The translations under genes and the position numbers were made by a program. From assembly GCF_045037415.1 (NCBI RefSeq), contig NZ_CP173438.1: a stretch of 64,000 nt of DNA; one strand, written 5' to 3'. Below, piece by piece: positions 2,565-36,226 of this stretch. Each line of letters opens with the position of its first letter. Position 1 is the stretch's first letter. The notes below the pieces were generated by a model. That model saw only the letters and a program-made list of their open reading frames with translations. It made no database searches and was not told the DNA's origin. Origin of the DNA: Escherichia coli. GTDB lineage: Bacteria; Pseudomonadota; Gammaproteobacteria; Enterobacterales; Enterobacteriaceae.

Positions 2565-3803
2565 ATGGCTGACACTCGCCCTGAACGTCGCTTTACGCGC
2601 ATTGATCGTCTCCCGCCCTACGTTTTTAACATTACCGCTGAACTGAAAATGGCTGCGCGTCGGCGCGGCGAAGATATTATCGATTTCAGTATGGGTAACC
2701 CGGACGGTGCGACTCCGCCGCATATCGTCGAAAAATTATGTACGGTGGCCCAGCGCCCGGACACGCATGGTTACTCCACTTCACGCGGCATTCCGCGGTT
2801 ACGTCGCGCCATTTCCCGCTGGTATCAGGATCGCTACGACGTTGAAATCGACCCGGAATCAGAAGCCATCGTCACTATTGGTTCGAAAGAGGGGCTGGCG
2901 CACCTGATGCTGGCGACGCTGGATCATGGTGACACAGTGCTGGTGCCGAATCCAAGCTACCCCATTCATATTTACGGCGCGGTGATTGCCGGGGCGCAGG
3001 TACGCTCAGTGCCGCTGGTGGAAGGTGTCGACTTCTTCAATGAACTGGAGCGCGCCATTCGTGAAAGTTATCCGAAACCGAAGATGATGATCCTCGGCTT
3101 CCCGTCAAACCCAACCGCGCAATGCGTGGAACTGGAATTCTTTGAGAAGGTTGTGGCGCTGGCTAAACGCTACGATGTGCTGGTGGTCCACGACCTGGCC
3201 TATGCCGATATCGTCTACGATGGCTGGAAAGCGCCGTCAATCATGCAGGTGCCGGGCGCACGCGACGTGGCGGTCGAGTTCTTTACGCTGTCGAAAAGCT
3301 ACAACATGGCGGGCTGGCGTATCGGCTTTATGGTCGGTAACAAAACGCTGGTCAGCGCGTTGGCACGTATTAAAAGCTATCACGATTACGGCACCTTTAC
3401 GCCGTTGCAGGTGGCGGCTATTGCGGCGCTGGAGGGCGATCAACAGTGCGTGCGCGATATTGCCGAACAGTACAAACGCCGCCGCGATGTGCTGGTGAAA
3501 GGGCTGCATGAAGCGGGCTGGATGGTCGAAATGCCTAAGGCTTCGATGTATGTCTGGGCGAAAATCCCGGAACCGTATGCTGCCATGGGCTCGCTGGAAT
3601 TTGCCAAGAAATTGCTTAACGAAGCGAAGGTCTGTGTCTCTCCAGGGATTGGCTTTGGCGACTACGGCGACACGCATGTGCGCTTTGCACTGATTGAAAA
3701 CCGCGACCGTATTCGTCAGGCGATTCGTGGGATTAAAGCGATGTTCCGTGCCGACGGTTTACTACCCGCCAGCAGCAAACATATTCACGAAAACGCGGAA
3801 TAA
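2565..3803 (+). CDS. alaC: Glutamate-pyruvate aminotransferase AlaC (412 aa)
   Basis: ORF 412 aa [21 protein letters not shown]...; aminotransferase class I pattern incl. [12 protein letters not shown]. Confidence 0.9.
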
Positions 3804-3867: not shown

Positions 3868-3939
3868 TTAGATCATCAGGGCAAAAGTACCGGCCCAAAC
3901 GATGACCATAAAAGAAATGCCCATAAAGAAATATTTCAC
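3868..3939 (-). CDS. ypdK: Small membrane protein YpdK (23 aa), GTG start
   Basis: Reverse complement translates to (M)KYFFMGISFMVIVWAGTFALMI*, matching YpdK from memory; not in ORF track because below its length cutoff. Confidence 0.5.
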   Translation of the reverse strand: MKYFFMGISFMVIVWAGTFALMI

Positions 3940-8905: not shown

Positions 8906-10600
8906 ATGTCAGATCAACTTCAAATGACAGATGGTATGCATATCATCGTTGAAGCATTAAAACAGAATAATATTGACACTATTTATGGTGTTGTAGGTAT
9001 TCCTGTGACGGATATGGCGCGCCATGCCCAGGCGGAAGGCATTCGTTATATTGGTTTTCGTCATGAGCAGTCGGCAGGTTATGCCGCTGCAGCAAGCGGT
9101 TTTCTTACCCAAAAACCAGGGATCTGCCTGACAGTGTCTGCGCCAGGATTCCTCAACGGTTTGACCGCATTGGCCAATGCAACGGTAAATGGTTTTCCGA
9201 TGATCATGATTAGCGGCTCCAGCGACCGCGCGATCGTCGATCTCCAGCAAGGTGATTATGAAGAGCTGGACCAAATGAATGCGGCAAAACCGTATGCCAA
9301 AGCAGCATTTCGCGTTAATCAGCCGCAGGATCTTGGCATTGCATTGGCACGCGCTATCCGGGTCTCAGTATCGGGTCGTCCTGGCGGTGTTTATCTTGAT
9401 TTGCCAGCAAATGTCCTGGCCGCGACGATGGAAAAAGACGAAGCGTTAACCACGATTGTTAAAGTTGAAAATCCGTCGCCAGCATTATTGCCATGCCCGA
9501 AGTCAGTCACTAGCGCAATTTCGCTTTTAGCAAAAGCTGAACGACCATTAATTATTCTTGGCAAAGGCGCGGCGTATTCACAATCTGATGAACAGCTTCG
9601 TGAATTTATTGAAAGTGCCCAGATTCCATTCCTGCCAATGTCTATGGCGAAAGGGATCCTCGAAGATACGCATCCACTCTCTGCGGCAGCTGCGCGTTCG
9701 TTTGCCCTGGCAAATGCTGACGTTGTCATGCTTGTTGGTGCACGACTGAATTGGTTACTGGCACACGGTAAAAAAGGATGGGCGGCAGATACACAGTTTA
9801 TTCAACTGGATATTGAACCGCAGGAAATTGACAGCAACCGCCCCATTGCTGTGCCAGTCGTTGGCGATATTGCATCCAGTATGCAAGGTATGCTGGCAGA
9901 ATTGAAACAAAACACATTTACGACTCCACTGGTGTGGCGTGATATTTTAAATATCCACAAGCAGCAAAATGCACAAAAAATGCATGAAAAGTTAAGTACA
10001 GATACCCAACCATTAAATTACTTTAATGCATTGAGTGCCGTGCGCGATGTTTTGCGCGAGAACCAGGATATTTATTTAGTTAATGAAGGGGCAAATACCC
10101 TGGATAATGCACGAAATATTATTGATATGTATAAACCACGTCGTCGTCTGGATTGTGGCACTTGGGGTGTCATGGGCATCGGTATGGGCTATGCCATCGG
10201 TGCTAGCGTGACCTCTGGTTCTCCGGTTGTCGCTATTGAAGGTGATAGTGCTTTTGGTTTCAGTGGGATGGAGATTGAAACGATTTGTCGATATAACCTG
10301 CCGGTGACGATCGTTATTTTTAATAATGGCGGCATCTACAGAGGAGACGGTGTTGACCTCAGCGGCGCTGGTGCACCATCGCCAACGGATCTGTTGCACC
10401 ATGCAAGGTATGACAAATTAATGGATGCGTTTCGTGGCGTTGGCTATAACGTCACCACGACAGATGAACTTCGTCATGCTTTAACCACCGGAATTCAGTC
10501 GCGCAAACCGACCATTATTAATGTGGTCATCGACCCAGCAGCAGGAACTGAAAGTGGCCATATTACCAAACTTAACCCAAAACAAGTCGCTGGTAATTAA
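8906..10600 (+). CDS. oxc: Oxalyl-CoA decarboxylase Oxc (564 aa), ThDP-dependent
   Basis: ORF 564 aa MSDQLQMTDGMHIIVEALKQNNIDTIYGVVGIPV...; ThDP-enzyme pattern. Confidence 0.9.
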   Translation: MSDQLQMTDGMHIIVEALKQNNIDTIYGVVGIPVTDMARHAQAEGIRYIGFRHEQSAGYAAAASGFLTQKPGICLTVSAPGFLNGLTALANATVNGFPMIMISGSSDRAIVDLQQGDYEELDQMNAAKPYAKAAFRVNQPQDLGIALARAIRVSVSGRPGGVYLDLPANVLAATMEKDEALTTIVKVENPSPALLPCPKSVTSAISLLAKAERPLIILGKGAAYSQSDEQLREFIESAQIPFLPMSMAKGILEDTHPLSAAAARSFALANADVVMLVGARLNWLLAHGKKGWAADTQFIQLDIEPQEIDSNRPIAVPVVGDIASSMQGMLAELKQNTFTTPLVWRDILNIHKQQNAQKMHEKLSTDTQPLNYFNALSAVRDVLRENQDIYLVNEGANTLDNARNIIDMYKPRRRLDCGTWGVMGIGMGYAIGASVTSGSPVVAIEGDSAFGFSGMEIETICRYNLPVTIVIFNNGGIYRGDGVDLSGAGAPSPTDLLHHARYDKLMDAFRGVGYNVTTTDELRHALTTGIQSRKPTIINVVIDPAAGTESGHITKLNPKQVAGN

Positions 10601-10669
10601 ATACTGACATCGTCTCCTCTTGCCAACTTATTATGCGATGGTGAGGGGACCCTTATCGGAAATACTATT

Positions 10670-11614
10670 ATGCTAACATTTTTTATTGGCGATTTATTGC
10701 CTATTATCGTAATCATGCTGTTGGGTTATTTTAGCGGCAGACGAGAAACTTTTTCAGAAGATCAAGCCCGGGCATTTAATAAACTGGTATTAAACTACGC
10801 TCTTCCTGCGGCTCTATTTGTTTCTATTACCAGGGCAAACAGGGAAATGATTTTTGCGGACACTCGCCTGACCCTTGTATCACTTGTGGTTATTGTCGGA
10901 TGTTTCTTTTTCTCCTGGTTCGGTTGCTACAAATTTTTTAAACGTACCCATGCAGAAGCAGCAGTATGTGCATTAATTGCAGGTTCACCTACCATTGGAT
11001 TCCTGGGGTTTGCAGTTCTCGATCCTATTTATGGTGATTCCGTATCAACAGGTTTAGTGGTAGCAATTATTTCTATTATTGTTAACGCAATTACTATTCC
11101 TATTGGTCTGTATTTGCTGAATCCTTCCTCAGGAGCGGATGGTAAGAAGAATAGTAATCTGAGCGCATTAATTTCTGCGGCAAAGGAGCCAGTAGTATGG
11201 GCACCTGTTCTGGCAACGATCCTGGTGCTGGTTGGGGTAAAAATTCCGGCAGCATGGGACCCAACCTTTAATCTGATTGCGAAGGCTAACTCAGGGGTAG
11301 CGGTATTCGCTGCGGGGTTGACTCTGGCTGCACATAAATTCGAGTTCAGTGCCGAAATTGCTTATAACACTTTCCTGAAGCTGATTCTGATGCCACTGGC
11401 GCTGCTTCTCGTCGGTATGGCATGTCATTTGAATAGCGAACATTTGCAGATGATGGTACTGGCAGGCGCATTACCGCCGGCATTCTCCGGAATCATTATT
11501 GCCAGCCGGTTTAATGTCTACACCCGTACTGGTACAGCGTCATTGGCTGTGAGCGTACTGGGTTTTGTCGTCACGGCTCCTTTGTGGATTTATGTCAGTC
11601 GACTGGTTTCATAA
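10670..11614 (+). CDS. yfdV: AEC-family transporter YfdV (314 aa)
   Basis: ORF 314 aa, polytopic membrane protein, follows oxc as in the K-12 operon. Confidence 0.85.
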
Positions 11615-12890: not shown

Positions 12891-15800
12891 AGTCATTTTG
12901 CTGACAGAAAACAGTAATCTCCTGGTCCAGCTCTGCAATGTGTTCTTTTACAGAGTTCAGCAACTGAAGAATTTCAGGCTTACTGTCATCTGAAACAGGT
13001 GTTATTTCTAACTGGTGGCTAATATTAATCAACTTTTGCAAATTCAGGATGTTAGCCGCACCGTGGATGCGATGAATACACTGATGGAAAGTTCTGTTAT
13101 CGCCAGCTTCTAGTGCATGAAACGCAGCGGGTAGATCTTTATGCGTTTCATGCTGGAAAGTCATGAGAATCTCCTGCATCAGTTGTAGATCATTCGCCGT
13201 ATTATTCTTCAGGGCCTCGATATCAAGGTGGCGATACTGAGGTGCAATATGCGCAACCTGGTGTAACTGACTTAAATGTGTTTTCAGTACATCCAGAGTC
13301 AACGGTTTGAACAAACATAAGTTCATGCCGCAATTTAACCCTTTTTCACGTTCGTTAGCCTGTGCGTTGGCTGTAAGCCCCCAGATGGGTAAGGAAGAAT
13401 TTTGCTCACGGAGTTTGCGAGTCAACTCAAAACCATCCATATTCGGCATATTAACGTCAGTAATAAGCAGATCATAATGTTGCATACTGATTTTGTGTAG
13501 CGCTTGCACACCATCAGTGGCTTCATCAACATCATATCCTAATAGATTTAGCTGGCGTTTGAGTAATAGCCTGTTGGTCGGATGATCATCCGCGATTAAT
13601 ATGCTCAACTTTTCAGGTAGTGTTATAGGTTGTTCTGCTTTTGCCTCGACAGCCGCCACTTGTTGGGTAATTTCTACCGGGATTGTGATCGTAAATATCG
13701 TTCCTATGCCTGGATGACTTTCTAATGACAAATCGCCCTGCATGTTTTTAATTAATTCTTTGCAGATCATTAAGCCTAAACCAGAACCTGTTTGCTGACG
13801 ACCTGCACTTGTTTGGCTATAGCGTTTAAACAGTTGTTGTTGTTCTTCCTGCGATAATCCACTTCCAGAATCCATAATCGTCATTTTGATAACAGCGTGG
13901 TTGTCATCAATGTGACCCAGGGAGGTCGTAATTTTTACTGCCCCCTCGGTAGTAAATTTGAGAGCATTACTCAGTAAATTAGATAAGACCTGCTTAAACG
14001 CCTGAGGGTCGATCTTAACCAGGTAGCGTTCAGGAAGCGTACTGCTGCAACTTAATGCGATCGATTTGCTTGCAGCAATCGCAGCGAAAGAGTGACAAGT
14101 GTTCTGGACTAAAGTAGGGATATCGACCCATTGTGGTTGAAGTTGATAGTTACCCGATTCAATTTTGTCGACATCAAGGATTTCACCAATTAAGCCGAGG
14201 AGTGATTGTCCGGTGGCGTAGGCAAGTGAAATCGCCTCCACCCGTTGTTCCTTGCTAAGACCAGAACCCGACAGAAGTTCCAGGAAGCCCATAATGGAGC
14301 TTATTGGTGTTCTTATTTCGTGACTCATTGTTGCCAGAAACTGGCTTTTTGCGACAGTTGCATTGATCGCTTTATTTCTCTCTACTTCGAGTGCATGAAT
14401 TAAATCACGCGTCTCGGTAATATCTTGCCAACCACAAATATAAACAGCATGTTCGCTTGCTGGCAGATTACATAAGGTATGCCAGTGATTAATGCATCTT
14501 TTCTCGATGCCATTATCAATTTCAAATACCTGTGTGTATATTTTTCGGTTTTCTTTCGTTTCTGCTGTGACTTCATGCGTATTAGAAAAAACATCTTTAA
14601 AGGGGGATTCACTGTTTTCTAATGGTAACATTGCATTTTTATAGTAATCAGCAGTGAAATAATGTTCAAATGCACTATTGTGACTAATGACATTACCTTG
14701 CCAGTTTACAACATAAGTTGGATTAGGTAAGGAATCCGAGAGCGCTTTCCGGAATGATATTTGGTTTTCTAAATCACCCTGAATAACTTTACGACGACGA
14801 ACTGAGCGTAACAGGTAGAATCCCCATAAAAGGCTACTGCCAACTAATAAAACGGATAATGTCGTAACAATATAAAATTGCTCGCTATAGAGGTCCCATG
14901 TGTCAATGGTCACATTGGGCATTTTAATCCATTTTTCGGTCAGGCGCAGAACTTCGCTTGGGGGAATTGCATTCAGTGCTTTATTAATAATATCCTTAAG
15001 TTCCGGTTCTCCGCGAGGAAAAGCGAACGAAAGTGATGCATTCTGAACGCCGGGAATAAGAAAATGATAAAGTTCATTAGGATAGTAATGGTCGATCATG
15101 TAACGCGAATTTAACTGTGTCGCGACCAGAGCATCAAGTTCACCTTCCTTGACCTTGTGAAATGCAGCGCTGGCGTTATCGACTTTTATCCACTCTACCT
15201 CCGGATACATCTCTTTTAATTGCGAATGAAGCTCATAATAATATGGAATGGCAACTTTCATTCCTTTTTTTAATGTTTGTTCACTGTCAGGCGCTTTTTG
15301 CATGACAAAAACGTAAGGCGTTGTTATGAAGACTTCAGCAAATGAAACATTATTTTCTCGATCTTCACTATAAATAGCGGCGGGCAATATATCCCATCCA
15401 CCGGGGTTAAGCTGTGTCCCAGCATGAATATTGTGTGAAACGGTGATCGGAGAAAAATTTAAACCTGTTTGCAAGGTAATAATATTAAGAATATCACCCA
15501 TCACGCCCCGAACTGAGCCAGTTTCATCTGTCATAGAATAGGGTGGCGAGTAAGGATTTTCCAGCACCTTTAAATCGGGATGCTGCTTAATCCACTGTTT
15601 TTCATGTTCAGTGAGTTCTAATGGTTTGTTCAGAAAGGCCAGGTTTCCTGTATCAAGCCAATTTTGTGATACTTCATAGCGAACTTCATTTGTTAAAGCA
15701 TCAACAAATCGATTGAGTACTTCATTAAGAACGATTGAATCTTTTCTGGTTAATAAAAAGTTATATTGACGCGGTGAGTTATAATACTTCACTACATTTA

Positions 15801-24260: not shown

Positions 24261-24280
24261 ATGGTGTCCCCTGCAGGAAT
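24261..24280. repeat. Distal attachment-site repeat of the argW-integrated element
   Basis: ATGGTGTCCCCTGCAGGAAT is an exact 20-bp copy of the argW 3' end at 36076-36095. Confidence 0.8.
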
Positions 24281-24400
24281 GTGATTAATGAATTAAGAAA
24301 TTGATTTTTATGAATATAAAATTTTTATTGTCATAATTCTATACACTTAGTTATACACATAAGAAAAAATCAGTGATTTTTATGGACTGGGTGTATCTTC

Positions 24401-24490
24401 CCCAGCCCAGCCCAGCCCAGCCCAGCCCAGCCCAGCCCAGCCCAGCCCAGCCCAGCCCAGCCCAGCCCAGCCCAGCCCAGCCCAGCCCAG
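24401..24490. repeat. Pentanucleotide microsatellite (CCCAG)x18
   Basis: Read directly: 90 bp of perfect CCCAG units, then CCCCAACAAA. Confidence 0.95.
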
Positions 24491-24582
24491 CCCCAACAAA
24501 CCTAATGCAGTCTTTAGTTTACAAATTGTTACATATATTATTCGTCAAATTTCATTATTATCAGAGAGGTAATGACTCCAAC

Positions 24583-25086
24583 TTATTGATAGTGTTTTAT
24601 GTTCAGATAATGCCCGATGACTTTGTCATGCAGCTCCACCGATTTTGAGAACGACAGCGACTTCCGTCCCAGCCGTGCCAGGTGCTGCCTCAGATTCAGG
24701 TTATGCCGCTCAATTCGCTGCGTATATCGCTTGCTGATTACGTGCAGCTTTCCCTTCAGGCGGGATTCATACAGCGGCCAGCCATCCGTCATCCATATCA
24801 CCACGTCAAAGGGTGACAGCAGGCTCATAAGACGCCCCAGCGTCGCCATCGTGCGTTCACCGAATACGTGCGCAACAACCGTCTTCCGGAGCCTGTCATA
24901 CGCGTAAAACAGCCAGCGCTGGCGCGATTTAGCCCCGACATAGCCCCACTGTTCGTCCATTTCCGCGCAGACGATGACGTCACTGCCCGGCTGTATGCGC
25001 GAGGTTACCGACTGCGGCCTGAGTTTTTTAAGTGACGTAAAATCGTGTTGAGGCCAACGCCCATAATGCGGGCTGTTGCCCGGCAT
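24583..25086 (-). CDS. insB: IS1 transposase InsB (167 aa)
   Basis: [53 protein letters not shown]..., matches IS1 InsB. Confidence 0.95.
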
Positions 25087-25280
25087 CCAACGCCATTCAT
25101 GGCCATATCAATGATTTTCTGGTGCGTACCGGGTTGAGAAGCGGTGTAAGTGAACTGCAGTTGCCATGTTTTACGGCAGTGAGAGCAGAGATAGCGCTGA
25201 TGTCCGGCGGTGCTTTTGCCGTTACGCACCACCCCGTCAGTAGCTGAACAGGAGGGACAGCTGATAGAAACAGAAGCCAC
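25005..25280 (-). CDS. insA: IS1 InsA (91 aa)
   Basis: [43 protein letters not shown]..., matches IS1 InsA. Confidence 0.95.
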
Positions 25281-25528
25281 TGGAGCACCTCAAAAACACC
25301 ATCATACACTAAATCAGTAAGTTGGCAGCATCACCTATCAGAGATTAACAAGCATTGGCAAAGGTTGTCACTCAGTAATACTCACCATTATTAACTATTA
25401 TTCACCATTATTTAGTATTCAAATTCTTTGAATGAGTTTGAAAGTGCCAGTCTTTACGTATTAATTCTTCTGTGCAAGTATATATACACCCAATAGAGAC
25501 TAATTAAGTCTTAGTATAAATATCTAAT

Positions 25529-25771
25529 GTGAAGGACATAGCCATGAGCTTATTGCCTCGGGAAAACGCACCCCAAAAAAGATATAGACTTCTGAGAATA
25601 TCAGAAGTGATTAATTTGACTGGCTTACCCAAGTCAACAATTTATCTAAAGATAAAGAATGATGAATTTCCGAACCAAGTTTCTATCGGTTCTCGTTCTG
25701 TTGCATGGGTGGAGCATGAAGTTAATGAATGGATAGAGAAGAATATTCTCAATAGAAAATTAAACTCCTAA
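25529..25771 (+). CDS. AlpA-family phage transcriptional regulator (HTH); true start may be the internal Met at 25544
   Basis: ORF 80 aa with YRLLRISEVINLTGLPKSTIYLKIKNDEFPNQVSIGSRSVAWVEHEVNEWI, the AlpA/MerR-like HTH pattern. Confidence 0.75.
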   Translation: MKDIAMSLLPRENAPQKRYRLLRISEVINLTGLPKSTIYLKIKNDEFPNQVSIGSRSVAWVEHEVNEWIEKNILNRKLNS

Positions 25772-26671: not shown

Positions 26672-27676
26672 ATGTATGCCTTCAAAACTGAAAGGCCGGA
26701 CGCAGCACGTCGTTATCATAATAAATTCGTCACTGGCACTAACTATCAGGAAGAATCAAACAGACGCTTTGCATTAAGCGAACCTACTGAAAATATACTG
26801 CGTACCTCAATTCTGGAATCCGGGTGGCTTATTAAAAATATTACCCTACGTGATGTTAACGCCGTGTCAGGTAATGCCGTCAATATTGGTGCCAGTGAAC
26901 TGTATACCGGACGTGTGGATGGTGGCCGTTTCCACAAAAAAATGGCAATCAATGGTACGGAGTTCTTTCTGACAGAGACGGATACCTGCGCCCGGATCAG
27001 CTATTCCGATATGTCTCATATTTACCATACCGGCGTGCCGGATGAGTTTGAGAAAACGGTTGAGAGCTTTTTTGCCCAGGCATATGCGCTGGACATGCTG
27101 CGGGTCGGTTTCAACGGTGTGTCGATTGCAAATACTACAAACCCGGAAATCAATAAAAAAGGCGAGGATGTCAATATTGGCTGGCATGCACTGGCGAAAG
27201 CCTACGGGAACGGAAAGCAAATCATCTCTGAGCCTGTCACTCTGGGAGAGACTGGCACCTGGAAAAATATTGATGCTCTGGCCAACCATCTGATTACAGA
27301 GCTTATTGCTGAGCAGTTTCGTGAAGATCCTCGTCTGGTTGTACTGGTTGGGGCAGAGCTGGCAGCACATCAACGCCTGAAGTTATTTAATGCCGCAGAC
27401 CGCCCGTCTGATGTGAATGCGGCACAGATGGCTACAAGTTCTGTTGCTGGCCGCTTTGCGTTTATTCCCCCGTTTATGCCGGGTAAGCGTCTGGCAGTAA
27501 CGACGCTGGATAATCTGCATATTTACACTCAGGCGATAACACGCTGGTTTCGTGCTGAGTTTGATGATGAAAGCAGTGAATACGTGCATTCCTACCTGCG
27601 CAATGAAGGTTATGCACTCGGTGAACCTGAACTGTACGCGGCTGTTGATGAGTGCACCCTGACGTTTGCGGATTGA
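26672..27676 (+). CDS. P2-GpN-like major capsid protein homolog (334 aa)
   Basis: Blocks FALSEPTENILRTSILES..., MLRVGFNGV...NIGW..., DALANHLITELIAEQFREDPRLVVLVGAEL and TLDNLHIYT align by eye with my recollection of P2 GpN; needs profile confirmation. Confidence 0.45.
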   Translation: MYAFKTERPDAARRYHNKFVTGTNYQEESNRRFALSEPTENILRTSILESGWLIKNITLRDVNAVSGNAVNIGASELYTGRVDGGRFHKKMAINGTEFFLTETDTCARISYSDMSHIYHTGVPDEFEKTVESFFAQAYALDMLRVGFNGVSIANTTNPEINKKGEDVNIGWHALAKAYGNGKQIISEPVTLGETGTWKNIDALANHLITELIAEQFREDPRLVVLVGAELAAHQRLKLFNAADRPSDVNAAQMATSSVAGRFAFIPPFMPGKRLAVTTLDNLHIYTQAITRWFRAEFDDESSEYVHSYLRNEGYALGEPELYAAVDECTLTFAD

Positions 27677-32907: not shown

Positions 32908-33789
32908 ATGAGTCATAATAAAAAGGAATATGCTAAATTTTTCCGTCGCCCCATTTTTTCATCCTTAGCAAAAGGTAAGGATATTTCGGATTTATTTGGG
33001 AGTTTTGATTCTTACTGCTATGAAACACTGTTTTCAAACAATGATAATAATGAACATGAGATTTCACTAAGGGATTTATTTACATCATTATATGATTTTT
33101 TGCGTCTGAATTATAGAAATGAATATGTTTATAAGACAGCACTTGTCAATAAAATAATATTCGGTAAGCACAGCCCAAAAACAAGTTCGTCGTCCATAGA
33201 GTTACCAATTAAAAACTCTATAGTGGATGTTGCGGTGTTTAATGGTACGTCTACAGCTTACGAGATTAAGACAGAGTATGATTCACCAAAAAGGTTGATT
33301 ACTCAAGCCCCTGATTATTTGGATGTTTTTGATAAAGTGTATATAGTTACACATCCAGAGTATGCAAGTAAATATTGTGCTTTAAATCTCCCCAGAGTGG
33401 GAGTTATGGTTTTGAATAAAAAAGATCAATTGAGTGTCATTAAGGAGGCAGATTCAAATATTGATTATATTAAAAGTGACAGCTTGTTTTCAGTTCTTAG
33501 AAAGGAAGAGTTCTTAGCTATAATAGAAGATTACACTTCAACTAAAATAAATATGCCTAACGGATTGGTTTATGAATATTGTAAAGAGATATTCATGCAG
33601 ATGCCATTAAACATAGCAAATAAATACTTTATCTCTGCTATGAAAAAAAGATGTAACGATAAAGTTTTTTTGGATTATATTTATTCTCTTCCAGCATGTT
33701 TACGTGTTTTAGGTTATGCAACACCATTATCAAGAAAGCAAAAAGAATTCATCATGAATTTGATGGATGTAAAAATTAAAATTTGTTGA
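32908..33789 (+). CDS. Hypothetical protein A (293 aa), AT-rich cargo gene with PD-(D/E)xK-like motif
   Basis: ORF track; IVDVAVFNGTSTAYEIKTE (D107 ... E119-x-K121) resembles a restriction-endonuclease-fold catalytic core; strong AT bias unlike flanking DNA. Confidence 0.6.
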   Translation: MSHNKKEYAKFFRRPIFSSLAKGKDISDLFGSFDSYCYETLFSNNDNNEHEISLRDLFTSLYDFLRLNYRNEYVYKTALVNKIIFGKHSPKTSSSSIELPIKNSIVDVAVFNGTSTAYEIKTEYDSPKRLITQAPDYLDVFDKVYIVTHPEYASKYCALNLPRVGVMVLNKKDQLSVIKEADSNIDYIKSDSLFSVLRKEEFLAIIEDYTSTKINMPNGLVYEYCKEIFMQMPLNIANKYFISAMKKRCNDKVFLDYIYSLPACLRVLGYATPLSRKQKEFIMNLMDVKIKIC

Positions 33790-33810
33790 TATCCTCAGGA
33801 GTTGTAAGTT

Positions 33811-34761
33811 ATGTATAGCCCATATTTGTATGCGAGAAGTACAGAGTTATTATGCCTTAGGGACCTCGTTGCGAAGGGAGTTAGCCTAAATGGTCTGCTA
33901 CCAATTTTAGAACCAATTAACGTCAATACGAGAAATTTATTAACATGTTTAAATGTTTGGAATTCTGACATAATTGTTATCCTTAATCCTTATCAGGAAG
34001 ATTTTTCTTCACACAATAACGTCTTAACTTTAAATCAAAATTTATCAAGTGTATTAACAAATAAAAATAATATCATCTCTGGATATCTTATTCAGCCCAA
34101 TACAACGATTAATGATATTAATAATTGGTTGAATGCTAACTTAAATAGACGAGTTGCACTTCTATATGATAATCCATCATTATCCAACTCTGATATTCAG
34201 TTGTTGGCGACAAATCAATTGATTAGTTATCATGTTGTTTTAAATAATAAAATGCTTCCTAATCAGTGCGCTCTTCTTCCTTTGTCGAAGTTAATTATTA
34301 TTAGCGATAACTTTAGAAAGTTAGCAAAAAATGCTGATTATAATGGGCCGGAACTTTTCACGCACGCACATCAATTCGTGGGACAAAATTACTTAGGATT
34401 TGGCGATTATACAATTACTGGCCAGGTACTAGATCTTGGAGGTGGTCAACCTTCTGCTGTTGCCGCACATTTGGTGTTCAAGAATTTACAAGCGAATACA
34501 GTTTGGATTCGTCATTTTGTATCAAGCAACACGCAACGAGGAAGTTCAAATGTTACTGCAAAATTTTTAGATGTTTCAGATCAAATTACAAATCTTGTTC
34601 CCCAACATCCAACCCAGTTTGGCAGCAACATTGGTCTTAACTATTATTATTACAATAGTCAACCAACTGTAAGGCATTTCCCTGGGTTGCCAAAAAACAA
34701 ACAGTATCAAATTACTCACCATATTTGTTTCATGCTGGATTTAATAGCAGGTCGTATTTAA
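33811..34761 (+). CDS. Hypothetical protein B (316 aa), AT-rich cargo gene, Asn/Ser/Leu-rich, no motif I can assign
   Basis: ORF track; AGGAG Shine-Dalgarno 8 nt upstream; 21-bp gap from gene A; 3' end overlaps integrase 3' end convergently. Confidence 0.6.
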   Translation: MYSPYLYARSTELLCLRDLVAKGVSLNGLLPILEPINVNTRNLLTCLNVWNSDIIVILNPYQEDFSSHNNVLTLNQNLSSVLTNKNNIISGYLIQPNTTINDINNWLNANLNRRVALLYDNPSLSNSDIQLLATNQLISYHVVLNNKMLPNQCALLPLSKLIIISDNFRKLAKNADYNGPELFTHAHQFVGQNYLGFGDYTITGQVLDLGGGQPSAVAAHLVFKNLQANTVWIRHFVSSNTQRGSSNVTAKFLDVSDQITNLVPQHPTQFGSNIGLNYYYYNSQPTVRHFPGLPKNKQYQITHHICFMLDLIAGRI

Positions 34762-35916
34762 TAAGCTAGCGTACCATTCCATCATTACTTGTCGATCTTT
34801 AATATATTGCGCATGATTGTAAGTACCTCGAATAGAGTTCTTATCAACATGCGCAAGCTGCATTTCAATCCAGGCACTTTCAAACCCATGCTCATGCAAG
34901 ATGGTGCTCATGGTATGCCTGAAACCGTGACCCGTTAACCGACCGTGATAACCCAGTAGTTTTATCACTTTGTTGATGCTGGCTTCGCTCATTGGTTTAC
35001 TGACGTCATTCCGGCCAGGGAAAACGAGGCTGTAATTCCCTGTTATTTCTTGCAGCTTTTTCAGGATATTGATCGCCTGAGTTGATAACGGAACCAGATG
35101 GGGGCGGCGTTTCTTCATCCGTTCTTTGGGGATCTCCCATAAGGCATTATCTAAATCAAACTCAGCCCATTCCGCTGCACGTAGTTCAATTGTTCGCACG
35201 CCTGTTAGCATCAACAGCTGCGTGGCGTATTTGGTAACTAAACTGCCCTGATAGTTATCCAGAGCATTAACGAACTCGGGCAACTCGCTTTCAGTCAGGA
35301 ACGGGAAGTGTTGGGTTTTAGGTTTGTTGAGTGCGATAGCTAAATCGGGTGCAAAATTATACTTTGCTCTACCAGTGGCAACAGCATAACGAAGCACTTC
35401 ACCACAGCGGCGGCGGATCTTACTGGTTTGCTCTAGCGCACCTCTTTTCTCTATTTTTTGCAGGACGGTTAGCAGTTCTAATGGTTCAATCTGCTCAATT
35501 GGGCGCTGGCCGATAAAAGGAAAAATATCCTTTTCCATACAATTGAGAACCTCTTTTGCATAACCCTCTGACCAGGTGGCTTTTTTCGATGAGTGCCATT
35601 CTCTGGCCACAGACTCAAAGCTGTTCTCATGCGCGAACTGCAAAGCAATCTTATCTGCTTTTCTGGCTTCACTTGGGTTTATCCCGTTGGCTAACATCGA
35701 ACGCGCTTCATCACGTTTGGTACGTGCCTGTGCCAACGACACATCGCCATATACGCCAAAGGAAATCATCTTAGGCTTACCTGCAAAGCGATAGCGAAAA
35801 CGCCAGCCTTTACTGCCCGCTGTGTCGATCAGGAGTGATAGCCCCATACCATCGTTAAGCGTATAGGGTTTGTCCTTCGGTTTTGCTCTTTTTATTTGGA
35901 TGTCAGATAGCAGCAT
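34741..35916 (-). CDS. P4-family tyrosine integrase (391 aa)
   Basis: ORF 407 aa trimmed to MLLSDIQIKRAKPKDKPYTLNDGMGLSLL...; C-terminal HxxR ... Y catalytic pattern; adjacent to tRNA. Confidence 0.85.
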   Translation of the reverse strand: MLLSDIQIKRAKPKDKPYTLNDGMGLSLLIDTAGSKGWRFRYRFAGKPKMISFGVYGDVSLAQARTKRDEARSMLANGINPSEARKADKIALQFAHENSFESVAREWHSSKKATWSEGYAKEVLNCMEKDIFPFIGQRPIEQIEPLELLTVLQKIEKRGALEQTSKIRRRCGEVLRYAVATGRAKYNFAPDLAIALNKPKTQHFPFLTESELPEFVNALDNYQGSLVTKYATQLLMLTGVRTIELRAAEWAEFDLDNALWEIPKERMKKRRPHLVPLSTQAINILKKLQEITGNYSLVFPGRNDVSKPMSEASINKVIKLLGYHGRLTGHGFRHTMSTILHEHGFESAWIEMQLAHVDKNSIRGTYNHAQYIKDRQVMMEWYASLLNTTCY

Positions 35917-36075
35917 GTGTATAGAAAAAAGATCGAACTCAGTTATACACAATGTTATACGCAAAGATGTATAGATTCCATTAGAAATAATGGTACTTTG
36001 CTGGACGAGTATAAGGAGATGATATCAGTTAAAACAGTGAGTTATGGAATTAATTGAACTTAGTGAGAAGTGTTC

Positions 36076-36095
36076 ATGGTGTCCCCTGCAGGAAT
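36076..36095. repeat. tRNA-proximal attachment-site repeat (overlaps argW 3' end)
   Basis: ATGGTGTCCCCTGCAGGAAT, identical to 24261-24280. Confidence 0.8.
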
Positions 36096-36151
36096 CGAAC
36101 CTGCAATTAGCCCTTAGGAGGGGCTCGTTATATCCATTTAACTAAGAGGAC
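36077..36151 (-). tRNA. argW: tRNA-Arg (anticodon CCU)
   Basis: Reverse complement reads GTCCTCTTAGTTAAATGGATATAACGAGCCCCTCCTAAGGGCTAATTGCAGGTTCGATTCCTGCAGGGGACACCA; cloverleaf with CCU anticodon and T-arm GGTTCGATTCC. Confidence 0.9.
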
Positions 36152-36226
36152 AATGCGGCATGAGTATACCCGCTAATGGACTACGGGGTAAGTACACAGC
36201 CGCTCGATTGCTTAAACCCTCGCCAT

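Follow-up and report, generated by a model that had tools for sequence, protein, structure and literature searches.

The DNA analysed here, called the window, is a stretch of 64,000 nucleotides from Escherichia coli contig NZ_CP173438.1 (RefSeq assembly GCF_045037415.1). In the RefSeq annotation of an identical copy, an 11.8-kb element lies between dsdC and argW. This element is a P4-like satellite prophage. Read from the dsdC side, the same annotation gives genes for an HTH protein, a hypothetical protein, a P2-family capsid homologue, an Icd/Ash-like protein, the products of two small open reading frames, a DUF927 (alpha-type) primase, an Ogr/Delta zinc-finger protein, the sce7726/sce7725 pair, and the integrase. 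Two copies of a 20-bp att repeat, 11,815 bp apart, mark its junctions, and the 75-amino-acid AlpA/Vis-family protein that it encodes is likely its recombination directionality factor (RDF). The junctions and the genes of the recombination module are the following.

24261-24280: att core identity at the distal junction by dsdC, second copy of ATGGTGTCCCCTGCAGGAAT, a duplicated argW 3' end.
25544-25771, plus strand: gene for the AlpA/Vis-family HTH protein, 75 aa (Pfam Phage_AlpA, E=5.2e-20).
34741-35916, minus strand: int, encoding a P4-family tyrosine integrase of 391 aa, with its ATG at 35916-35914.
36076-36095: att core identity at the int-proximal junction, argW 3' end; 20-bp exact direct repeat ATGGTGTCCCCTGCAGGAAT, overlapping tRNA-Arg(CCT).
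36077-36151, minus strand: argW, tRNA-Arg(CCT).

Of 5,426 complete E. coli genomes, 438 (~8%) have the int-proximal junction, nearly always at an identity of at least 99%. Strains 81009 and ZH063, which are among the identical-sequence matches listed, presumably belong to ST131.

Several other features of the element deserve mention. An IS1 copy of 768 bp is inserted at 24568-25335 between two copies of its duplicated 9-bp target, TATCAGAGA (24559-24567 and 25336-25344), and is missing from a related element, L002. A perfect (CCCAG)18.6 microsatellite at 24401-24493 lies immediately inward of the distal arm sites described below; L002 has about 11 copies of this unit, and the CCCAG copy number is therefore variable. 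Upstream of the AlpA gene, TTCACC-type short repeats (25374-25419) are similar to the “ori type 1 repeats” TGTTCACC of P4 crr/ori and are probably iterons for the alpha primase. The satellite has a full-length P2-family major capsid homologue (26672-27676; Pfam Phage_cap_P2, E=9.5e-67), and neither sid nor psu is annotated in it, whereas the P4 record has sid and psu and is without a capsid gene. A variable slot adjoins int, occupied in the window by the sce7726/sce7725 family pair (32908-34761) and in L002 by an ATP-dependent nuclease (13062-14900); P4 cII, which adjoins P4 int, is likewise annotated as a member of the sce7726 family. We take this cargo slot beside int to be a candidate anti-phage defence hotspot.

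A sequence-only reading of the window had pointed to the same short motifs inside both ends of the element and had proposed that they are arm-type sites of the integrase or of an RDF. The strings that it listed are indeed found, namely, GTTATACACA at 35942-35951 and 24350-24359, GTTATACG at 35954-35961, CTATACAC at 24339-24346, and an inverted GTGTATAG at 35917-35924. They form one pair near the distal att repeat and another near the int-proximal one, and the latter does lie just upstream of the start of int, which is read from the minus strand; one motif overlaps the ATG itself. The arm word in the window is GTGTATA(A/G), and the individual 12-bp sites, scored with a weight matrix described below, are as follows.

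24349-24360, minus strand: distal arm site 1, ATGTGTATAACT in int-sense orientation; 16.2 bits with the matrix, which was built from relatives only.
24337-24348, minus strand: distal arm site 2, AAGTGTATAGAA; 14.1 bits, in tandem with site 1 at a 12-bp period.
35953-35964, minus strand: proximal arm site B', TTGCGTATAACA; 15.4 bits, 111 bp from the core.
35941-35952, minus strand: proximal arm site A', TTGTGTATAACT; 16.0 bits, in tandem with B' at a 12-bp period.
35915-35926, plus strand: inverted arm site C, ATGTGTATAGAA; 17.6 bits, the best match of the window, overlapping the int ATG.
35965-35976, plus strand: possible weak fourth proximal site D, AGATGTATAGAT, inverted, overlapping a conserved GGAATC box.

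The distal and the proximal pair agree in orientation, and in both the sites follow each other head to tail at a 12-bp period. The distal sites lie 56 to 80 bp from the core and the three sites of the int arm (together with the weak one) 111 to 161 bp from it. The motif, which is unlike the core sequence, is repeated on both attP arms, and arm-type sites are expected to lie in this way within about 150 bp of the core.

Two further matches were considered as arm sites. Site D (35965-35976) is an extra TATAC copy that the sequence-only reading did not list. It is not among the 25 best matrix matches of the window (cut-off, 8.0 bits); at its place, L007-L009 have a good match, CTGTGTATAGAT, and the thrW subgroup has none. 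Being weak in the window and absent from the thrW subgroup, it was downgraded and is not counted as a full arm site. The string GCGTATAG at 35859-35866 lies within int, scores 8.6 bits, and falls on the codons of conserved PYTL residues; as an arm site it is probably coincidental.

Words of this kind could be frequent at random in AT-rich DNA, a possibility that had been raised against the motifs from the start, and the answer depends on their length. The exact 10-mer is confined to the two places named, which is more than chance predicts for 64 kb (0.12 expected; two or more matches in 1 of 100 shuffles), whereas the shorter versions occur in the window at about the expected count (TATACAC, 7 matches versus 5.3 expected; GYGTATAR, 6 versus 6.3). 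Because these short motifs are not over-represented, simple counts were dropped as evidence; frequency alone proves nothing, and the case is made by placement and by the relatives. As to placement, five of the six GYGTATAR matches of the window fall within one or other of the arms beside att. From 33 sites of eleven related elements, the window being excluded, we derived a weight matrix of 12 bp and ran it over both strands of the window. The five arm sites are its top five matches in the 64 kb, with 14.1 to 17.6 bits, and the next match has 10.9 bits. In composition-preserving shuffles, matches of at least 14 bits numbered 1.07 on average and 3 at most.

For the comparison with relatives, a scan seeded with the window integrase, with one genome per species, yielded 80 loci. 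Segments of 123 nt up to the int start codon were aligned for 39 elements, comprising the window, L002, 36 Enterobacterales relatives whose integrases are 59 to 96% identical to that of the window, and P4. All 39 have phased short repeats, a tandem pair, a GTTCGATC-like box, and an inverted copy abutting the start codon. The motif positions, whose conservation in related argW elements had been suggested as a check on the arm-site idea, are thus retained not only at argW: the five-site layout recurs in relatives with integrase identities as low as about 60%, and in three tRNA targets.

The word itself changes in concert at B', A', and C. The GTGTATA class (TATAC when read on the opposite strand) has 26 elements. 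Their targets are argW and thrW, except that L022 occupies a tRNA gene whose anticodon loop we read as Arg(TCT). The GTTGGTA class has 2 elements, the GGGGGTA class has 4, and the GGGGGCA class has 6 in addition to P4. Because most of the relatives come from the one integrase-seeded search, these classes represent few independent lineages. Over the 39 regions, the B', A', and C heptamers differ at 0.42 positions within an element versus 3.58 between motif classes. In L004 and L037, exactly one 12-bp unit of the tandem pair has been lost, at A'.

The closest comparison is with L002, a close variant that has a different int allele and the nuclease cargo in place of the sce7726/7725 pair. Its site blocks are 100% identical to those of the window, while the neighbouring arm DNA has diverged on both arms, a footprint-like pattern of conservation; distal site 1, in particular, is identical despite its diverged flanks. 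Some of the other relatives are decaying or tandem elements. L037 has a second, degraded copy of the proximal arm and int start at 15148-15188, ~5 kb downstream of its first int, and stops truncate int in L015, L017, L036, L037, and L040; L036 is listed among them at about 9995.

On the distal side, an exact-repeat search recovered the far att copy in L006, L011, and L022, as well as in L002, and in the first three a tandem motif pair is located immediately inside it. The matrix scan added tandem pairs with the same 12-bp period and orientation in L016, L018, and L019; in relatives recovered in this way, the distal att repeats (copies of the tRNA 3' end) are degenerate. L006 and L009 each have one distal site above the matrix threshold, the adjacent 12-mer being a weaker match. 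In all, seven further relatives (L006, L009, L011, L016, L018, L019, and L022) have a distal pair, at a distance of 55 to 65 bp from an att repeat that is degenerate. Control DNA of 895 kb, consisting of loci of other classes and of more distant relatives, gave 11 single matches and no tandem pair. For the GGGGG classes, confirmation on both arms comes from P4 alone, because most of their distal ends are outside the 10-kb flank.

These distal pairs bear on one alternative, in which the proximal sites do no more than serve as an operator for integrase autoregulation, or as promoter elements of the -10 type, and recombination makes no use of the distal copies, which would have arisen by chance in AT-rich DNA. 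DNA of this composition often contains TATAC-type words, and the int promoter is expected where the proximal sites lie; moreover, in our reading of the alignment, the junction of B' and A' has a conserved TANNAT hexamer, which in P4 and the GGGGG classes is preceded by TTGAAA 18 bp upstream. However, distal pairs with the same period, orientation, and distance to the core are present in nine TATAC-class elements (the window, L002, and the seven further relatives), in P4, and in the K-12 prophage KplE1. Furthermore, a reading as pure promoter elements fails because the GGGGGCA class and the GGGTAAAA class of KplE1, whose words are not -10-like, occupy the same positions. We therefore regard this alternative as very unlikely.

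If the motifs are arm-type sites, the question is which protein they serve. The integrase of the window has the separate N-terminal arm-DNA-binding domain of a heterobivalent integrase (Pfam Arm-DNA-bind_3, residues 3 to 87, E=3.7e-26) besides the Phage_int_M and Phage_integrase domains. Over residues 1 to 90, integrases of the TATAC class are 66 to 99% identical to it and those of the other classes 47 to 53%. Identity to the window integrase in the two parts of the protein separates as follows. (i) The thrW-type integrases of the TATAC class and that of L022 have 66 to 69% over residues 1 to 90 and 61 to 64% from residue 91 to the end. (ii) Those of the GTTGGTA, GGGGGTA, and GGGGGCA classes, P4 being left aside, have 48 to 53% over residues 1 to 90 and the same 61 to 64% over the rest. 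(iii) P4 Int has 47% over residues 1 to 90 and 40% over the remainder. The N-terminal domain of P4 Int, in turn, is 62 to 63% identical to those of its GGGGG-class relatives, versus 38 to 42% for the rest of the protein. The motif class tracks the N-terminal domain of the integrase. It is not tied to the catalytic domain, to the tRNA target, or to the type of Vis/AlpA protein.

The integrase of L022 (int at 10001-11164, from an Enterobacteriaceae MAG) is instructive in this respect. Its catalytic part is closest to GGGGG-class integrases (69 to 70%), and its N-terminal domain (69 to 72%) and its arm sites are of the TATAC class. It is a clear mosaic, which indicates that the arm-binding domain and the arm sites were exchanged together.

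The competing view is that the motifs are bound by the AlpA/Vis-type RDF and not by the integrase. The element does encode an AlpA-family protein, the sites of RDFs are usually short repeats in direct orientation spaced by roughly one turn of the helix, and P4 Vis likewise represses the int promoter (PMC7286903). The motif class is nevertheless independent of the Vis type. The Vis proteins of L018, L019, L023, and L036 are 59 to 71% identical to P4 Vis, yet these elements have TATAC sites and P4 has GGGGGCA; the AlpA protein of the window is 46% identical to P4 Vis, and its motif is TATAC, as in the elements with P4-type Vis. In addition, a motif that is present on both arms, with one copy inverted, has the pattern of integrase arm sites and not that of RDF sites. 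Other sequences in the element, listed here with two IHF-like sites, are better candidates for RDF sites than the arm 12-mers.

24294-24306, minus strand: candidate IHF site AATCAATTTCTTA, within the 56 bp that separate the distal pair from the core; an exact match to WATCAANNNNTTR, but a consensus match only.
35931-35938, minus strand: conserved GTTCGATC box between A' and C.
35974-36007, minus strand: phased short repeats GTCCA, GTACC, TTTCT, and GAATC with a period of ~11 bp.
36012-36024, minus strand: weak IHF-like site TATCATCTCCTTA in the proximal arm, with one mismatch, in a stretch poorly conserved in L002.

The phased repeats align with GTCCG/ATCCG repeats of P4 and of the elements with P4-type Vis, are similar to the TorI sites of KplE1, and may be excisionase sites for AlpA/Vis. 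The box appears as GTTCGATC, GTTCGGTC, GTTCAATG, or CTTCGATT in all motif classes, including P4. It, too, is similar to the TorI sites of KplE1, whose attL has five of them (GTTCG, GATCG, and GTCCG; PMC2951348), and is a candidate RDF site or else a part of the int leader. As for the IHF site, the window has four exact matches to WATCAANNNNTTR, of which the one at 24294-24306 is at a place where L002, L009, L011, L016, L018, and P4 also match the IHF consensus exactly or with one mismatch. Because the motif co-varies with the arm-binding domain and not with Vis/AlpA, the integrase is favoured over the RDF. The RDF reading, which we consider very unlikely, was rejected; of the two proteins named by the sequence-only reading, the integrase is retained and the RDF is not.

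The arm sequence repeats of P4 attP were reportedly described by Pierson and Kahn in 1987. Our comparison with P4 is based on the features of GenBank record NC_001609, in which the repeats are annotated from sequence, and on secondary citations. In this record, 12-bp “attP arm sequence repeats” are given as a tandem at 4174-4151, the core at 4097-4078, a second tandem at 3965-3942, and an inverted repeat at 3915-3926 that runs into the P4 int ATG; the P4 word is GGGGGCA. In the alignment, B' corresponds to 3965-3954, A' to 3953-3942, and C to the inverted 3915-3926. The distance from the distal pair to the core is 53 bp in P4 and 56 bp in the window, that from the core to the proximal pair is 112 and 111 bp, and that from the proximal pair to the inverted site is 15 and 14 bp, respectively. 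The window thus has the attP layout of the P4 family, with one pair on each arm and an inverted copy at the start codon, at the spacing of that family. Both elements have a P4-family integrase gene beside a tRNA gene and transcribed away from it, and both have a Vis/AlpA gene, an alpha primase, and a delta/ogr gene. They differ in the recognition word, which is GTGTATA(A/G) in the window and not the GGGGGCA of P4, and in the target, which is argW for the window element and leuX for P4. Likewise, an extra arm repeat inside P4 int (3621-3632) is without a clear counterpart in the window. The window element is a different specificity class on the P4 scaffold.

A similar layout is found in the KplE1 (CPS-53)/HK620/Sf6 module, which has the same attB, argW, and the same core sequence as the window element. 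In K-12 KplE1, GGGTAAAA and GGATAAAA make up a tandem at a distance of 112 bp from the core; two copies of TTTTACCC in inverted orientation come next, and the second directly precedes the ATG; in attR, a tandem pair of GGGTAAAA lies ~58 bp from the core. KplE1 and the window thus share a proximal tandem pair at 111 to 112 bp, an inverted copy at the ATG, and a distal pair, and the overlap of KplE1 attL with the int promoter is a further likeness. Four arm-type sites of IntS with a common TAAA, one of them over the -10 box, are known in KplE1 attL, and these TAAA-containing P' sites were assigned experimentally (PMC2951348, Panis et al.). On the other hand, the KplE1 arm word is GGGTAAAA, with its conserved TAAA, and that of the window is GTGTATA(A/G). 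K-12 IntS is 45% identical to the window integrase, TorI shows only a weak similarity to the window AlpA protein (27% over 51 aa), and KplE1 is a defective P22-like prophage whereas the window element is a P4-like satellite. The window element therefore has neither the IntS-type integrase and TAAA sites nor the TorI of the KplE1 module, and only attB and the architecture are common to both.

The likeness to lambda is more general. Lambda Int and the window integrase are both heterobivalent, both systems have arm sites on either side of the core, adjacent tandem ones included (P1, P2, and P'1-P'3 in lambda), and the IHF and Xis sites for bending proteins in lambda have candidate counterparts between arm and core in the window (PMC2951348). 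Lambda Int, however, has an arm-binding domain of a different family, the number and orientation of its sites differ from those of the window, and the lambda int promoter does not overlap att.

Taken together, the comparisons make it very probable that the GTGTATA(A/G) 12-mers are arm-type binding sites of the integrase of the argW P4-like satellite. Being laid out as in P4 and KplE1, with a different word, they are an ordinary, already known kind of feature.

From this arrangement we infer binding, bridging, and autoregulation by the integrase along the following lines. Read in int orientation, the attP of the excised circle would consist of the distal pair (24360-24337), 56 bp with the IHF consensus, the 20-bp core, 111 bp with the candidate excisionase sites, the proximal pair (35964-35941), 14 bp, and the inverted site (35915-35926). 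The Arm-DNA-bind_3 domain would occupy the arm sites while the C-terminal domains occupy the core. Bending of the DNA, by IHF at 24294-24306 and by AlpA on the opposite arm, would allow bridges between arm and core, and this bridging by the integrase would give rise to the complexes of integration and excision. After integration, the dsdC junction would retain the distal pair and the argW junction the three proximal sites, and integrase bound to the latter would repress int.

The last step follows from the position of the proximal sites, which cover the int promoter/leader and the start codon; bound integrase should therefore repress int. Piazzolla et al. (2006) reportedly found the N terminus of P4 Int to be enough for autoregulation. 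P4 Int has been described as repressing its own promoter, as has the PAI I integrase of strain 536 (PMC7286903), and negative autoregulation is known for IntS, IntC, IntF, and IntL (PMC2951348). In the window, a simple scan of 35800-36200 found no sigma-70-like promoter, which leaves the autoregulation step unanchored. The conserved TANNAT hexamer mentioned above, preceded by TTGAAA in P4 and the GGGGG classes, may mark a candidate int promoter. Alternatively, int might be transcribed by read-through from argW, by analogy with ICEKp1, in which int is transcribed by read-through from the tRNA gene and stem-loops in the leader attenuate the asn-int transcripts (PMC13023037).

The ICEKp1 leader also lends some credit to another explanation of the proximal sites, namely, that A' and C pair with each other in the leader RNA of int and that the resulting hairpin masks the start codon or acts as a transcriptional attenuator; their concerted changes would then be compensatory base-pair changes. 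A' and C are inverted relative to each other and change together, and the predicted structure does pair them. Its folding energy, however, is -8.9 kcal/mol (z = -0.22), no better than that of shuffled sequence, and a hairpin leaves unexplained why the direct copy B' and a tandem pair 11.6 kb away have the same class-specific motif. As the main explanation, the hairpin was therefore rejected, and we consider it very improbable; it could still be an added layer on top of the integrase arm sites, especially in the GGGGG classes.

The arm sites of the window leave the current understanding of such integrases unchanged. [quoted passage not shown] Two of the specificity classes, those of the satellite and of the KplE1 group, use the same attB. 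Our findings suggest that P4-family integrases have a modular arm-site specificity that can be swapped. Such modularity would allow the prediction of cross-talk between co-resident elements and would be of use for orthogonal integrase tools. A broader proposal, which we put forward tentatively and with the balance tilted slightly against it, is that P4-family integrases use one rigid attP scaffold in which the arm-binding domain and the 12-bp sites are swapped together as a cassette, independent of the catalytic domain and the tRNA target. The rigid scaffold may consist of a pair ~55 bp from the core on one side and, on the other, a pair at 111 to 112 bp plus the inverted site at the start codon. 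If this proposal is true, there would be at least five orthogonal classes (GTGTATA, GTTGGTA, GGGGGTA, GGGGGCA, and GGGTAAAA), and elements that compete for one attB, such as the satellite and KplE1/Sf6/HK620 at argW, would assemble their recombination complexes and autoregulate their integrases without cross-talk.
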